From the NCBI GenBank assembly GCA_031367385.1, contig JANLPS010000527.1, positions 1 through 59,458 of the forward strand: a stretch of DNA of 59,458 nucleotides. The letters run 5' to 3'. This stretch comes from Archangium sp. Its GTDB lineage: Bacteria > Myxococcota > Myxococcia > Myxococcales > Myxococcaceae. A program made the translations under genes and the position numbers. Positions 1 to 7,933 of this stretch are shown here, piece after piece. The notes below the pieces were generated by a model. The model saw only the letters and a program-made list of their open reading frames with translations. It ran no database searches and was not told the origin of the DNA. Positions within the stretch are counted from its first letter, which is position 1, and the number at the start of each line of letters is the position of its first letter.

Positions 1-505
1 CGCGTTGGCGAATTCGTCAGACGCGTTCTTGTTGTTGCGGGCGAAAGAGTTGGGCGTGTCAGACGCGCTGCTGCCGGTGCTGTGGTGCGCGCTGAGCGTG
101 TCGAAGATGGTGTGGTCGGTGCTCGGTGGCGCCTGGAGCGACCGCATGCCCCGCCATCGCTTGGTGCTGATCGGCTGGGGAGTCTACGTGGCGACCTATG
201 TGGCGCTCGGGTTCGCGAATTCAGCGTGGCAGGTGTGGGGGCTCTTCGTGATCTACGGCGCGTTCTACGGTTTCACCGAGCCGGTCGAGAAGGCGCTGAT
301 CAAAGACCTGACGCCCGAGCCGATTCGCGGGCGCGCGTTCGGGGCGTACAACGCGATGCTCGGGCTCTCGTCGGTGCCGGCCGGGTTGTTGACCGGAGCG
401 CTGTGGCAGAACTTCGGAGCGCCGACGGCATTGTGGGTCGGCGCCGGAGTGGCGCTGGTGGCGGCGGTGCTCCTGACTGGCTGGTCACGGGCACGGGCTG
501 CATGA
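1..505 (+). CDS. MFS transporter, C-terminal part (truncated by window start)
   Basis: Several TM helices; GGAWSDRMPR (MFS motif A-like) and PEPIRGRAFG loop motifs. Confidence 0.85.
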   Translation, partial: ALANSSDAFLLLRAKELGVSDALLPVLWCALSVSKMVWSVLGGAWSDRMPRHRLVLIGWGVYVATYVALGFANSAWQVWGLFVIYGAFYGFTEPVEKALIKDLTPEPIRGRAFGAYNAMLGLSSVPAGLLTGALWQNFGAPTALWVGAGVALVAAVLLTGWSRARAA

Positions 506-545
506 GAAAGGGCAACAGGCTTCGGCTCAGCTTGGCTGTGCGCGC

Positions 546-808
546 GTCTCGAATTCAAAGCTGAACGAAGCGCCCAGCCCTCAACGTGACTCCAGTTCAG
601 AAAACGGCTGAAAACGTGGCCCCGTGCACGTGTCGAATTCACACCTGGTTGAATCGCCGAGCCCTGAGGGTGTCTCGAATTCAGAAATGGGCGAAAGTCG
701 AAGCCCTCAGACGTCTCGAATTCACCCGTGAAGTGGAGCCCGACGGCGCGGAGCGTGTCGAATTCAGAATTGGGTGAAGTGCTTGAGCGTGATCTGCAGT
801 CGAATGGC
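546..808. repeat. Degenerate tandem array, 7 units, 42-bp period, core GT(C/G)TCGAATTCA
   Basis: Cores start at 546, 588 (degenerate GACTCCAGTTCA), 630, 672, 713, 755 and 797 (degenerate CAGTCGAATGGC); spacings 42,42,42,41,42,42. Confidence 0.9.
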
Positions 809-939
809 CGAGCACTCGAAGTCGCGCCCGCACAGTTGAGACGACGCATTGGTTCCCGCTCGAATGTTCGACACGATTTCTGCCGCGGCATCTTCTTGAT
901 TTGAATTGAGTTTGTGCGGTTCTCTGAAAAAGAATTTTT

Positions 940-964
940 GGTGTCGCAATCGGTTTTCGACACC
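940..964. promoter_or_regulatory. Inverted dyad GGTGTCGCAA-N5-TTTCGACACC upstream of the 1021 gene
   Basis: 9/10 inverted match; half-site resembles the array core GTGTCGAA; follows an AT-rich tract at about 890-940. Confidence 0.5.
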
Positions 965-1020
965 GCGCGTGTGCATCGATGCGACGCACATCTCGTGCGC
1001 CGCACACACAGAGGCAGCTC

Positions 1021-1770
1021 ATGTCGAAAGGTCAATCGGTCGTCGGTGATGCGTTGTTGTTTCTCGCGAACAGCATTCGTGCGGAGGACGTCGTTCAGCT
1101 CGCGTTCGACCCGCTCCATGCGAAGCGCATCTGCGGAGAGGGTTTGTCGTTTCTCGACAGACACCGTGCCGCGCTGCAGAAAGAACACCCCAACCTCGAT
1201 CTGGCTGAGGTCGACGCGTTGCCTGAGCTGTGCGACCGCATCTCGCGCGCCCAGCGAGAGACCGACAACCTCCGGCGAGAAGAAAACCCAGCGCGCGAAT
1301 TGACTGACGATGCGTTGGAGTGGCGGCGCCGCTTGCTCCCTATGGCCGACTCGCTGGTGGCAAGCCACGCGCTCGATGCATCGATCGTCGATGGAATTCG
1401 TACTGGTCGAGGCGTCGCCAATCACGTGCAAGACGTCATCGACCTGACGCTCGCGCTCGAGCCTCATGAAGCGGTGGTCGCCGCGGCGTTCGGCAAGGGC
1501 GCGCTCGAGAAGGCGCGCAAGGCGGCTGATGCAGCCATCAAGTCGATGGGTGCCAGGTCGCAGTCGAAAACCGAAGCGTCTGTCAGTGCCGACCTGCGCG
1601 ACCGCTACGCGACGATGGTGATTCAGCGGCATGATCGCTTGCGCGTGGTGGTGGCGTTGGTCTCTTCCTTCAAGAAGGCCCAGCGGGTGGTCGCTGGCCT
1701 GCGAGGGGCAGGTCGTCGCAAGGCGAAGACGCTCGTGCCACCGGTGACCGAGCCGGTGATGCCTTCGTAA
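1021..1770 (+). CDS. Hypothetical all-alpha protein with basic C-terminal tail, adjacent to the array
   Basis: GAGG at 1011 before ATG 1021; amphipathic helical pattern; LRDRYATMV..RHDRLR and GRRKAK tail. Confidence 0.8.
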   Translation: MSKGQSVVGDALLFLANSIRAEDVVQLAFDPLHAKRICGEGLSFLDRHRAALQKEHPNLDLAEVDALPELCDRISRAQRETDNLRREENPARELTDDALEWRRRLLPMADSLVASHALDASIVDGIRTGRGVANHVQDVIDLTLALEPHEAVVAAAFGKGALEKARKAADAAIKSMGARSQSKTEASVSADLRDRYATMVIQRHDRLRVVVALVSSFKKAQRVVAGLRGAGRRKAKTLVPPVTEPVMPS

Positions 1771-1783
1771 GGTGACGCGGTAC

Positions 1784-1814
1784 GCCGGCTGGGGCCAGGT
1801 CGAGCCCAGCCGGC
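1784..1814 (+). terminator. GC-rich hairpin after the stop codon (possible terminator, no clear U tract)
   Basis: GCCGGCTGGG (1784-1793) / CCCAGCCGGC (1805-1814), perfect 10-bp stem. Confidence 0.5.
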
Positions 1815-1932
1815 CTGATTCATGTGAAGTTTTCAGTATTTACAAAATCGACCGATGCCTCGCAGGGTCCAGTGAATACGCGCGCGCCGGCTTTCGTCAG
1901 TCGCCAGGCCACCCGCCGACCTGGAGCCCGCC

Positions 1933-3237
1933 ATGTCACACGCCGCGCATTTTCTGACCCGCCTCGAACGCCTCGCCGCGCCCGAAGTCGACCTCGCCCT
2001 GGCGCTCTACCGCGACCCCCGCATCGTCAAAGAGCTCATCTCGACCGTCTGCGTGAGCTCGAGCGACCGCGCTGCCCTGGCGTTGACCGCTGACCCTCAA
2101 GGCCCGCACCTGATTGTTGGCGGCGACGGAGGCTTCATCACCTGCCTTGCGCGCGGCATGGGCCTGAACGGCACCCGACGCATCGAGCGTCGCGAGGTTC
2201 AAGCGGCGCTCAAGAACAAGGCTCTCGTGAGCCTGGGCGATGAGCTTCTGCAGGAGCACCCCGCGCTGCTGACGATGCTCTCGAAACAGGCCGTCATCTC
2301 CCGCGAAGAATTCTCGGTCATTGCCAAATTCCAACCGGCGCTCGAACACCTGGTCGTTGATCAGCTAATCAAAGACGTCGAGAAGACCTTCTCGCTGCGA
2401 GAGCGGTGGGAAGAAGATCGGCTCTCGCTCAAGGGTCTCGAAGCCTACTGGCGTGCGGTGCAGAAGCACGGTCACCTGGCGAGTCTGCTCGGCATGTCGG
2501 GTCGCCGCTTCGATGGGCTCGACCGAGGGGGTGTCGCGAAGGTCTGCAACAGCGTGCAGACCGAAGCCTTCACCCATGGCGCGATGTCGACCTGCGCCCG
2601 TGCGCTCTGGGCCTCGGCCCGCTGGGGGTGGCCGCGCATCGAAGCCCTGCGCAACGCACGAGGCGAGGCGCCCTCCGCGACCCTCGCCATCGGCCGGCTC
2701 TTCGAGGTCGCGGTGTTGGGGTTGTCGCACCCGACCTTCTTCGATGAGGCCCGCACGTGGCTTGGTCTCGACGCCGGCTGCACACCAGCGCGAGCGCGAA
2801 TCGCCCAGGTGCAAAAGGCCTTGCTGGCGATGTTCGACGCACCGCTGGCCGCTCTCCAATCACTCGAAGACGAGGGGCAGCGGCTGATGCGCGCGTACGC
2901 CGTGCGCAGTGATTCACGGTTCGAGGCGCTGCAGTTCGCCATTCTGCAGCCGGCGAACCTCTGGGAGCCCGACTCGCGAGCGTTGACGCGGCTGGCGCAG
3001 GCGCTGCCCTTCATCGCGCATTGCAAAGCCGAGGAGCTGTACCTGCCCGACGCCGTGCTGGAGATGTCGGGTCTTCGGCAGATCAGCTTTGGTGCCATCG
3101 AGGCCAGCCTCACCGCTGTGTGTGCTCAGAACACCGATGAACACCCCCTCGCCCGGCAGCCCCGGTTGGGCCGCAACGAGCCCTGCGGCTGCGGCAGCGG
3201 CAAGAAGCACAAACGGTGCTGCCTCGCGACGGTGTAA
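1933..3237 (+). CDS. SEC-C motif domain-containing protein
   Basis: C-terminal LGRNEPCGCGSGKKHKRCC zinc-binding SEC-C motif; GGAG upstream. Confidence 0.85.
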   Translation: MSHAAHFLTRLERLAAPEVDLALALYRDPRIVKELISTVCVSSSDRAALALTADPQGPHLIVGGDGGFITCLARGMGLNGTRRIERREVQAALKNKALVSLGDELLQEHPALLTMLSKQAVISREEFSVIAKFQPALEHLVVDQLIKDVEKTFSLRERWEEDRLSLKGLEAYWRAVQKHGHLASLLGMSGRRFDGLDRGGVAKVCNSVQTEAFTHGAMSTCARALWASARWGWPRIEALRNARGEAPSATLAIGRLFEVAVLGLSHPTFFDEARTWLGLDAGCTPARARIAQVQKALLAMFDAPLAALQSLEDEGQRLMRAYAVRSDSRFEALQFAILQPANLWEPDSRALTRLAQALPFIAHCKAEELYLPDAVLEMSGLRQISFGAIEASLTAVCAQNTDEHPLARQPRLGRNEPCGCGSGKKHKRCCLATV

Positions 3238-5355: not shown

Positions 5356-5623
5356 CCCACGCCCCGCGTTCGCAAACTCTCAAAAGTGATCTGACCTGCG
5401 GCCGAACACGGCACGCCACGTCACTTCAAACGCCAAATATTCGTGGAAACCGTCTCGAATTCTCGGCGCTTGAGAATTCGACGGCCGATCTGACGGCGCG
5501 TGTCGAAAAAGAAACAGAAACGCTCTGGCCCCCTTCCGTCGCGAACGACGAGTGGCGTATATCCCGCGCGCACTTGAACGCAGGTCCTCACACATTCGCA
5601 GCACTTTCCGCAGTGGAGAACAC

Positions 5624-7933
5624 ATGAACTGGACTCAAAAAGTCGCAGCATTCGCAATGGGAACGATGGCCCTGGTGGGCGGAGCGGGTTGCGGCGACGC
5701 GACTGCGACGACCTCACCTGACGAGACGGCTTCGACCACCAAGCCGAAAGACCCGCTTGCCACTGGGTCGAGCTTCGCCGCGCTGACCCGCGACGTGAGC
5801 GCCGACATCATCGGCCAGCGCGAGCGCGCTTTGGTTGCGTCGGGTGCGAACAAGGCCAAGGTTGACTCGAGCTCGAGCTTCTATTTGGCGATCAGCAAGA
5901 AATCGATGACCCAGAAATGGTTCTTGTCGACCTACATCACCCAGTTCTTCCCGGGCGCAGTCTCGGGCGGCGCGGCCCGCTCGATGGGCACCCGCGTGGT
6001 CAGCTTTCAGGTTCAGAACGGCAAGCTCTTCATGTTCGACGCCAGCTCGAACAACGCGACCTCGGGCACGTTCAACCCGCAGGTGTTGCTCGACGCGTAC
6101 CCGATTGTCACTGACAACGCGGCGTTCAACGCCTCGGCCAACGCGAAAGACTACGTCATCTTCGACCCCTCGTCGGGCCTGAACAAGTTCAACTTGTTCA
6201 CCGACTGGTTCGGCGGCGCGGCGTTGCCGATGAACATCGACGTCAGCTTCTTGCAGAACTTCCGCTCCATCAGCGATGGCGCGACCTGGGAGCAAGTCTT
6301 CACCGGCACCAGCAACGTCGCGATCAGCGACGGCACCGTCGACGGCAACGTGCTCCGCGCCTCGGGCACCTTGGGCATGTCGCTGCGTCACTACACCGAA
6401 GGCACTGGCTTCACCGAGACCGAGCTCCCGAAAGAAGAGTACTTCTTCCGCTCTGATTCGCACCTGGTGCCGAACTCGGGTGGCTCGCTTCAGACCGCCG
6501 CCAAGTGGAACATCTACAAGGGCATGAAGCCCATCACCTGGAAGATCGCGAAGAGCGTTCTCGACGTGCAGAACGACCCGTACTTCGGGCAATACGACAT
6601 CGTCGGCTCGCTCAAGGGCGCCATCGAGAGCTGGAACAAAGTGTTCGGCTTCGAGGCCTTGCGCGCTGAGATCGCGACCGAGACCGACTCGGCCGGCAAC
6701 GACGACACCAACTACGTGCTCTTCGACGAAGACCCGAGCTACGGCGCGGCCTTCGCCAACTGGCGCAGCAACCCCAACACCGGCGAAATTCGCGGCGCGT
6801 CGATCTACTTCAGCTCGCTCTGGCTCTGGGAAGCTGACGGTTCGTTCAGCGATGACCCGGGTCTCGCTCCGTCGGTCAAGGGCACCCGCCCGGCCGCTGG
6901 TGCGGCGATTACCGCTCCCCGCAAGGCTCAGACCACGCCGATGATTGGCTGGCAGCCGATGGCCGAGAAGCCGTTGTGCATGATGTGGGCGCCGCAGTAC
7001 GCCCGTGGTGGCGCAGACGCTGCTGAGCTCGCTGCGGCGAACGCGGCAGTCGGTCACATGGTGGCGGGCTTGACCAAGAAGCAGAAGGTCGAAGCGCTGC
7101 TCCTGCACATTCTCGCGCACGAAGTCGGTCACACCCTCGGTCTGCGTCACAACTTCAAGGGCTCGCTCGTGCCGCCCACCAGCTCGGTGATGGACTACAC
7201 CGGCTACGAAGACGCGGCGATCGCCCCCGGCCCGCAAGCCTACGACGACGTCGTGGTGAAGCTGCTGTACGGCCTCGGCAAAGACCTGCCCACCATGCCG
7301 TTCTGCACTGACGACAGCGTTGGCATCGACCCCGACTGCACCCCCTACGACGTTGGCGCTGACCCGCTGACCGAGACCTACGGCAAGGCGTTCTCGACCG
7401 TGAAGGCCGACTTCTTGTCAGGCAAGAGCGGCACCGCCCCCAACACCACCGCGAACAACCTGCTCAAGTACGTGCGAGCCGGTACGCCTGCCCAGGCCGA
7501 GTACGCGTGGAAGCTCGCGTTCGACGGTATCTCGGCTCCGATCAGCTCGACCTTGCTCTCGTCGAGCCCGGTCTATGGCGCCGCTGCAGACGCGTTGTCG
7601 AAGCGCCTGCTCAACCGCATGTGGATCGATGACCCCACCCTGCGCGGCTCGTTCAAGGCTGACCCGCCCCGCACCGCGTTCATCATGGTGAACTCGCTCA
7701 ACGAGCTCTCGGGCAACCTGAACAACCTCGACGGCGTTCGCTCGTTCGCGAACCGCCGCTCGAACGTCGACATCCTCAAGTACTTCCAAATCGTTCAGGC
7801 GTACCAAATCTTGAGCGATGCGAAGGCGAAGATTGCCTACGACGCGACCAAGTTGAGCGGCCAGCCGTTGTTGCTGACCCAAGACCTGCAAGCCCGCATC
7901 GACGCGGCGATCAGCCCGTACTTCGTGAAGTAA
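5624..7933 (+). CDS. Zinc-dependent metalloprotease lipoprotein (metzincin, EcxA/DUF4953-like)
   Basis: GGAG before ATG 5624; lipobox GAG-C; HEVGHTLGLRH plus Met-turn SVMDY. Confidence 0.88.
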   Translation: MNWTQKVAAFAMGTMALVGGAGCGDATATTSPDETASTTKPKDPLATGSSFAALTRDVSADIIGQRERALVASGANKAKVDSSSSFYLAISKKSMTQKWFLSTYITQFFPGAVSGGAARSMGTRVVSFQVQNGKLFMFDASSNNATSGTFNPQVLLDAYPIVTDNAAFNASANAKDYVIFDPSSGLNKFNLFTDWFGGAALPMNIDVSFLQNFRSISDGATWEQVFTGTSNVAISDGTVDGNVLRASGTLGMSLRHYTEGTGFTETELPKEEYFFRSDSHLVPNSGGSLQTAAKWNIYKGMKPITWKIAKSVLDVQNDPYFGQYDIVGSLKGAIESWNKVFGFEALRAEIATETDSAGNDDTNYVLFDEDPSYGAAFANWRSNPNTGEIRGASIYFSSLWLWEADGSFSDDPGLAPSVKGTRPAAGAAITAPRKAQTTPMIGWQPMAEKPLCMMWAPQYARGGADAAELAAANAAVGHMVAGLTKKQKVEALLLHILAHEVGHTLGLRHNFKGSLVPPTSSVMDYTGYEDAAIAPGPQAYDDVVVKLLYGLGKDLPTMPFCTDDSVGIDPDCTPYDVGADPLTETYGKAFSTVKADFLSGKSGTAPNTTANNLLKYVRAGTPAQAEYAWKLAFDGISAPISSTLLSSSPVYGAAADALSKRLLNRMWIDDPTLRGSFKADPPRTAFIMVNSLNELSGNLNNLDGVRSFANRRSNVDILKYFQIVQAYQILSDAKAKIAYDATKLSGQPLLLTQDLQARIDAAISPYFVK

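Follow-up and report, generated by a model that had tools for sequence, protein, structure and literature searches.

The window, the whole 59,458-nucleotide stretch of an Archangium sp. contig (JANLPS010000527.1) analysed here, carries a tandem repeat between an MFS transporter gene and a gene for an uncharacterised all-helical protein of 249 residues with a basic, proline-rich tail (1021..1770, + strand). The array begins 40 bp past the transporter stop codon and ends ~205 bp ahead of the 249-residue gene; an AT-richer spacer lies between array and gene (870..960, no strand assigned; GC 0.42 versus 0.65 for the window). It comprises six full units, also without assigned strand (545-586, 587-628, 629-670, 671-711, 712-753 and 754-795). 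Their measured lengths of 42, 42, 42, 41, 42 and 42 bp agree with the first-pass annotation of this DNA, which had described a period of 42 bp with one unit of 41 bp. A partial, degenerate seventh unit follows (796..815, no strand assigned), with GTCGAATGG at 799-807 and 11-18 of 42 positions matching the other units. GAATTC or a degenerate form of it is found where it had been placed, at 551, 593 (CAGTTC), 635, 677, 718, 760 and 802 (GAATGG). The unit core is TCGAATTCA, and the five exact copies of GT(C/G)TCGAATTCA that had been counted were located at 546, 630, 672, 713 and 755; the core of unit 2 is decayed. The window contains no other exact core, and the whole 7.97-Mb genome contains 10, of which five lie in this array and two in a related array on contig C367. 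When 208 genomes of the family were searched with the core pattern, two matched besides the host, both in prophage tail genes and by chance.

The 42-bp repeat is real and non-coding. Autocorrelation over 541-815 reaches 0.425 at lag 42 (z 5.7) and 0.466 at lag 84 (z 6.5), values that none of 5000 dinucleotide shuffles matched at either lag; across 1000 shuffles, no lag whatever exceeded 0.421. The window array has no 21-bp half-period (lag 21, z -0.5). A 7-bp sub-period, suggested by lag 7 (z 2.5) and lag 49 (z 3.8) in the window array, is missing from pooled arrays and was rejected. The interiors between cores had been described as differing, and they do, but they are not unique spacers: pairwise identity over units 1-6 is 41% (range 14-66%) against 27% expected from composition. 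The positional sub-motifs TG at +5, GAA at +10 and AGCCCT at +19 were likewise seen in the alignment of units 1, 3 and 4. The units of the window are degenerate copies of a single 42-mer rather than a repeat alternating with unique spacers.

Several other searches of this region were negative. Tandem Repeats Finder did not report the array, Rfam gave nothing near a gathering score, no sigma-70 promoter was found, and no terminator-like site lies between array and gene. Predicted RNA folding of both array strands is no better than that of shuffles (z 0.61 and -0.77), as is the best dyad symmetry in the window unit (p = 0.76), where the 6-bp GAATTC is the only palindrome; C/G skew is absent (0.05). 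One promoter-like match lies inside the array on the minus strand (CTGAATT-N15-CGTC, 742..767, score 15.1). It may be a chance match; genome-wide, a -35 element ending in T shows no enrichment of a -10 (10/1389), and the other arrays have no counterpart.

Because 42 is divisible by 3, we considered a decayed or frameshifted 14-amino-acid coding repeat. The earlier argument that the 41-bp unit breaks any reading frame fails, as a minus-strand ORF (265..1632) runs through the entire array without a stop. The claim that the array is non-coding nevertheless stands, since this ORF has no coding signature: its codon score is -0.24 (+0.10 to +0.24 for neighbouring real genes), 16% of shuffles have some open frame across the array, and most of the changes that two diverged metagenome contigs show in it alter the amino acid (4 synonymous to 13 non-synonymous, and 2 to 5). 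Both frames that read a 14-codon repeat in register meet a stop in units 1-2, and the listed differences of the diverged contigs do not include these stops. The longer contig aligns over 577-759 with 27 differences and zero gaps; the 41-bp unit is therefore conserved. Pooled arrays have no 3-bp periodicity, and sister arrays include periods of 41 and 43 bp and some with stops in all six frames. The coding-repeat reading is thus largely refuted, and we regard it as very improbable. The same contigs, at a depth of about 3, provide modest evidence that the core is conserved: the two of them, from two studies, carry the consensus core in unit 2, and in the longer one 0 of 27 bases changed in the cores of units 3-5 versus 12 of 85 elsewhere (p = 0.03, one contig at depth 3.2 with 19 of its 27 differences listed).

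The array belongs to the 249-residue gene, which defines our family A. Its product matches no Pfam, NCBIfam, PHROG or PADLOC family above cut-off, and no DNA-binding domain was recognised in the family proteins. AlphaFold2 models it as an all-helical rod (pLDDT 83) with helices of up to 54 residues and no β-strands. A second family, B, was found via the promoter-like motif described below; it has eight intact genes of 216-225 residues and one broken copy in the host, and its model is also all-helical (pLDDT 89). A fold search against the PDB and viral models gave no match at E ≤ 0.001 for the 249-residue protein; the best matches of family A (Z 7.7, rmsd 4.0, 173 aligned) and family B (Z 10.3, rmsd 3.9, 131 aligned) are generic helical bundles. 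Similarity between the two families is at best marginal (probability 4.6%, E 0.009). Both are basic, with a median net charge of +6 in family A and +4 to +14 in family B, and Arg102, Arg193 and Arg195 are invariant or nearly so. The broken family-B copy (L144, G000:C433:27657-27923, - strand) has an internal stop and lacks its 3' part; a motif variant lies upstream of it, and an obvious array is absent.

Family A has 1379 relatives at E ≤ 0.001 among representatives at 50% identity and was matched in 74 of 401 genomes of the phylum; the named relatives are Myxococcota/Myxococcaceae records, two of them genomes of the host's own family. There are 14 family-A and 9 family-B matches in the host genome (G000) and none to either family in a congeneric genome (G001, 87% complete), which has no synteny with the locus, so that no empty site can be defined. 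No family-B relative was found in viral contigs and no plasmid homolog of a family-A protein was found. The PF19775 (DUF6261) profile has no match in the host genome; language-model similarity to DUF6261 genes (0.81 and 0.87) is a lead only.

The promoter-like motif is bipartite, GTGAATA-N15-CGT(C/G), with 34 exact matches in the genome at a spacer of 15 and 0-5 at each of the other spacers (11-14 and 16-20). The exact motif sits 49-81 bp before the start of 18 of the 21 family-A and family-B genes, between array and gene. Arrays track the gene families: 14 of the 18 motif-bearing family genes have one, versus 2 of the 16 other genes with an exact motif (Fisher p = 0.0002). At the window locus, CGCAATC-N16-CGTG (945..971, + strand), read by eye against the 61% identical homolog L041, which has GTGAATT-N15-CGTC at the equivalent place, is likely what remains of the family motif; the motif matrix finds no good site on the + strand of the window (best -1.1; true sites at least 15.5). 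Elsewhere in the window, GTGAATA-N16-CGTC (1872-1898, + strand) lies ahead of the SEC-C gene (1933-3237), preceded by an AT-rich stretch and no array.

From its sequence, we infer that the motif is the promoter of an ECF-type sigma factor, on the basis of a CGT -10 pattern that we take to be that of ECF promoters. None of 63 sigma region-2 matches has the motif upstream, as an autoregulated sigma factor would (best 7.2; site minimum 15.5), and no paper confirming the motif as an ECF promoter was found. The 16 non-family sites include several before predicted secreted or envelope proteins, among them, by eye, a Skp/OmpH-like protein (C495), a cytochrome c (C362) and lipoproteins. Together the motif sites form a candidate envelope-stress sigma regulon. 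We rejected a role of the arrays as sigma decoys or as divergent promoters in tandem: heptamers resembling the -35 element recur in only 4 of 21 upstream regions, without -10 matches.

Comparison across the host genome places the window array in context: it is the upstream, non-coding part of a dispersed multi-copy cassette whose order is repeat array, promoter-like motif, helical-protein gene and terminator-like hairpin. At the 21 assessable host loci (13 family-A and 8 family-B), the best upstream period is 41-44 bp in 17, compared with 78 of 720 control upstream regions, and 15 of the 21 exceed the 95th percentile of controls; this test is conservative, since family members and orphan arrays are among the controls. 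Pooled autocorrelation of the family upstream regions peaks at 42 and 84. Unit sequences are wholly different in distant paralogs and are shared by close ones only, and near-perfect, young arrays exist alongside heavily decayed ones. The first-pass suggestion that a period near four helical turns matters is strengthened by this, as related arrays keep 41-43 (44) bp despite wholly different sequences. The arrays lie directly upstream of the motif and would therefore not be on the mRNA of the gene. In the window the cassette closes with a terminator-like hairpin (1772..1823, + strand; -28.3 kcal/mol for the first 70 nt) that lacks a long U run. A hairpin ends most cassettes, and in two of three recent duplicate cassette pairs homology stops at the equivalent hairpin. 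No terminal inverted repeats or adjacent transposase were seen in the cassettes and orphans examined. The neighbours of the window cassette encode an MFS transporter, a SEC-C protein and a DUF2804 protein, and other cassettes have unrelated chromosomal neighbours. A general dyad symmetry of the arrays was rejected as borderline only: 5 of 31 units reach p < 0.1 (combined p = 0.059), and 63 dyads were observed versus 41 expected in nested counts.

Arrays of this kind also occur in other genomes. We compared 76 family-A loci from genomes other than the host in which the upstream DNA was long enough; they were chosen as best-scoring and multi-copy matches and not as a random sample. Of these, 13 have an array and 63 have none detectable; 15 had been flagged, and two (L024 and L122) were dropped by eye as coding repeats. 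These outside arrays have periods of 42 or 43 bp, some near-perfect, some of mixed 42 and 43 bp, and several with stops in all six frames. Among the array-less loci are a conserved group of single-copy orthologs and a subfamily whose upstream gaps are short; the array is thus not obligatory for the protein. Family B was matched in 9 of 300 other genomes of the order, and 6 of 12 loci examined there carry 41-43-bp arrays, one of them weak. Periods of 41, 42 and 43 bp and mixed runs of 42 and 43 bp, a tolerance of ±1 bp, fit a constraint on phasing rather than on codons.

Six intergenic arrays in the host genome resemble cassette arrays and have neither motif nor gene. The one on C367 is ~72% like the window array and is its sole other copy in the genome; the match covers the array alone. 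Five of the six gene-less copies reach to within ~15-55 bp of the expected motif start. Each of the six faces a converging gene, with 14-85 bp between the stop codon of that gene and the gene-proximal end of the array, a polarity with p = 0.016 at 50:50 and p = 0.0014 when set against the 7 of 21 intact cassettes with convergent downstream neighbours; a simple operator model does not predict it. In 24 of 35 arrays the gene strand is C-rich (p = 0.04; 49% in controls), a count that includes non-independent kin arrays. The commonest periods of intergenic tandem repeats in the host genome are 7 (24 arrays), 21 (20), 42 (16) and 23 bp (15), and periods 21 and 42 dominate these repeats generally, REP-like ones included.

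The explanation that we tentatively favour, and to which we would give somewhat under an even chance, is that the array is a helically phased DNA binding platform for the cognate cassette protein. We infer that the period reflects helical phasing and that the units are bound by the product of the neighbouring gene. The array would act as double-stranded DNA, presenting binding sites about four helical turns apart; the elongated, basic helical protein of the cassette itself would probably bind the units cooperatively, and the bound array would control or organise its locus, with each paralog reading its private site sequence. What favours such a platform is the constant length of about four turns (±1 bp), the position upstream of the motif and the link to basic, rod-shaped proteins. 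It counts in its favour, too, that the period is kept when sequence is not, that arrays follow the genes and not the motif, that RNA folding is not in excess, that the cores of units 3-5 are unchanged and the unit-2 consensus core is present in two contigs, and that the rods consist of long helices with the three conserved arginines. Counting against it are the lack of a DNA-binding domain, known family or structural match, the existence of array-less homologs and gene-less arrays, a dyad symmetry that is not general, and the frequency of 21- and 42-bp periods among the intergenic repeats of this genome.

That last observation bears on a different reading, in which the array, as a selfish or minisatellite-like repeat, accompanies or seeds a mobile cassette; its period would come from the generating mechanism, without need of a sequence-specific reader. 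The dispersed and patchy cassettes, abundant in the host and absent from the congeneric genome, the coexistence of near-perfect and heavily decayed arrays, gene-less copies that span exactly the array, and the intergenic period peaks at 7, 21, 23 and 42 bp are what it would lead one to expect. We still consider it doubtful, as the cassettes and orphans examined have no visible terminal inverted repeats or transposase, the cores are better conserved than the interiors, and two families of at best marginal similarity independently keep period, distance and motif. The orphan polarity bears instead on an array acting in transcription or RNA opposite to the gene, as a divergent non-coding RNA, a protein ligand or a polar element of pausing, termination or stability. 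Action in the opposite orientation would allow gene-less copies to survive in the 3' regions of converging genes, and the main support for it is that all six abut such ends; the C-richness of the gene strand in most arrays and the minus-strand promoter-like match in the window point in the same direction. Against this, excess RNA structure is absent, the window array has no C/G skew, the promoter match is not general, the orphans number six in a single genome, and the skew count includes kin arrays; we therefore judge this, too, unlikely.

A 12-bp core that is conserved between more variable interiors, beside a single small gene, recalls a CRISPR- or TIGR-like guide array that yields ~42-nt RNAs with variable targeting segments, and the first-pass annotation had offered a transcript processed into short RNAs as one possibility. 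This does not survive comparison: the interiors are mutually homologous, many sister arrays are near-perfect with nothing variable in them, folding is not in excess, the array precedes the promoter-like motif, and there is no match to a Nop or Cas family and none in Rfam above gathering. We give a guide array next to no credence. Comparison with phage and plasmid DNA gave chance-level matches only (best E 3 and 0.2), in databases that hold few myxobacterial phages. A CRISPR array consists of near-identical repeats parted by unique, unrelated spacers; in contrast, the window interiors are related and sister arrays near-perfect. For CRISPR and REP elements alike a defining feature is absent, and the array is neither, as the annotation had held. 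Plasmid iteron and parC centromere arrays are direct repeats in helical phase with an AT-richer stretch after them, and the array resembles them in both respects; no Rep, ParA/ParM or other replicon gene was found next to it, and the neighbours are chromosomal housekeeping genes. The label "iteron-like", taken as a replicon origin, is not supported, the copies being chromosomal and dispersed.

Among the systems with which we compared the cassette is KfrA of plasmid RA3. This alpha-helical protein binds a promoter repeat array cooperatively and is autoregulated, its operator, part of a plasmid stability module, consisting of five 9-bp repeats that overlap the -35 and -10 elements (PMC7783346). 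The cassette likewise has a helical-protein gene with a repeat array near a promoter-like motif (compare PMC7783346), and the best explanation would work like the KfrA operator without membership of its family, the KfrA family having no Pfam or NCBIfam match here. The cassettes differ from what is described of KfrA in that the units are 41-43 bp and wholly upstream of the motif, the location is chromosomal, and more than 20 paralogous cassettes have differing unit sequences. TIGR-Tas pairs a Nop-domain protein with dual edge and loop repeats bearing UG...CCA boxes, variable spacers and 36-nt RNAs (PMC12045711). It shares with the cassette a short-period array beside one small gene and repeat sequences that vary among loci; it is unlike the cassette in that the latter has a 42-bp unit with one core, TCGAATTCA, in a continuous degenerate consensus and no dual edge and loop repeats with UG...CCA boxes around variable spacers. 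The Pfam Nop domain matches none of 117 family members, the model of the 249-residue protein consists of long helices only, and the fold search lists no Nop protein, which is weak by itself.

Type III toxin-antitoxin systems (ToxIN/CptIN/TenpIN) are ordered promoter, repeats, terminator and toxin (PMC3401426). Both place tandem repeats of comparable size ahead of one small gene; the cassette is distinct in having the motif between repeats and gene, no terminator between them and an all-helical rod as product, and no ToxN/CptN/TenpN endoribonuclease was matched by Pfam, NCBIfam or PADLOC. BrickBuilt, a minisatellite MITE of Porphyromonas gingivalis, is a single 23-nt sequence that has a leader, a tail and inverted ends and lacks a partner gene (PMC4596501). 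It too is an intergenic tandem repeat in many dispersed copies with a possible effect on neighbouring transcription (PMC4596501), but each cassette has its own 42-mer, shows no inverted ends by eye and is tied to two gene families. CGTC/GTAG REP elements carry a tag with a 6-13-bp stem and loop after it, the stem being 8-9 bp in CGTC REPs (PMC3733652). Some units start with CGTC, and the gene-less copies lie just past stop codons as such REPs do (PMC3733652); unlike them, the array has a 6-bp palindrome only and no stem-loop, with 10 exact cores in the genome.

A literature search of partial coverage found no description of the cassette, and the multi-copy array-gene cassette is apparently undescribed. 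Its architecture fits no known family tested, and its mechanism may prove a variant of the repeated operator. A bolder proposal, to which we attach a minor but appreciable probability, is a widespread, undescribed class of bacterial cassette in which a rod-shaped protein without a known nucleic-acid-binding fold would read its own array by both length and sequence, using a ruler of two or four turns; paralog-private sites would co-evolve with their proteins, and the array, possibly by way of the protein, would be copied alone to other sites with fixed polarity. If true, the cassettes would represent either a novel family of re-targetable, phased DNA-binding modules or a novel type of mobile element. 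A fixed period without fixed sequence, in at least two unannotated families and more than 20 copies in one genome, points to an unknown mode of protein-nucleic acid recognition. Because many arrays occur with their proteins as natural pairs in one genome, swaps among them would test specificity and phasing directly, and the candidate regulon of ~34 sigma sites, with its envelope-type genes, suggests when the cassettes turn on.

Further repeats and genes were observed along the way. The window also encodes a predicted secreted zinc metallopeptidase of 793 residues (5552-7933, + strand; DUF4953 Met-zincin). The 23-bp repeats form an AT-rich class that recurs at many loci, and a separate REP-like family with periods of 20-21 and 40-42 bp is present at C203, C90, C301, C388, C447 and C376 of the host genome (G000), the C388 array following a gene that resembles a GIY-YIG nuclease by eye. 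More intergenic arrays of 41-42 or 21 bp without an adjacent family gene occur on C494, C544, C69, C425, C552, C7, C471 and C165; those of C494 and C544 are alike, as are those of C69, C425 and C552, and the C552 array lies ~500 bp from a family-B gene with other sequence intervening. A third uncharacterised helical family with basic ends, in which no similarity to family A was detected, is encoded at L157 (G000:C415:7849-8772) and L159 (G000:C331:7158-7970), with a 21-bp array ~100-250 bp upstream at C415 and ~1.2 kb upstream at C331.
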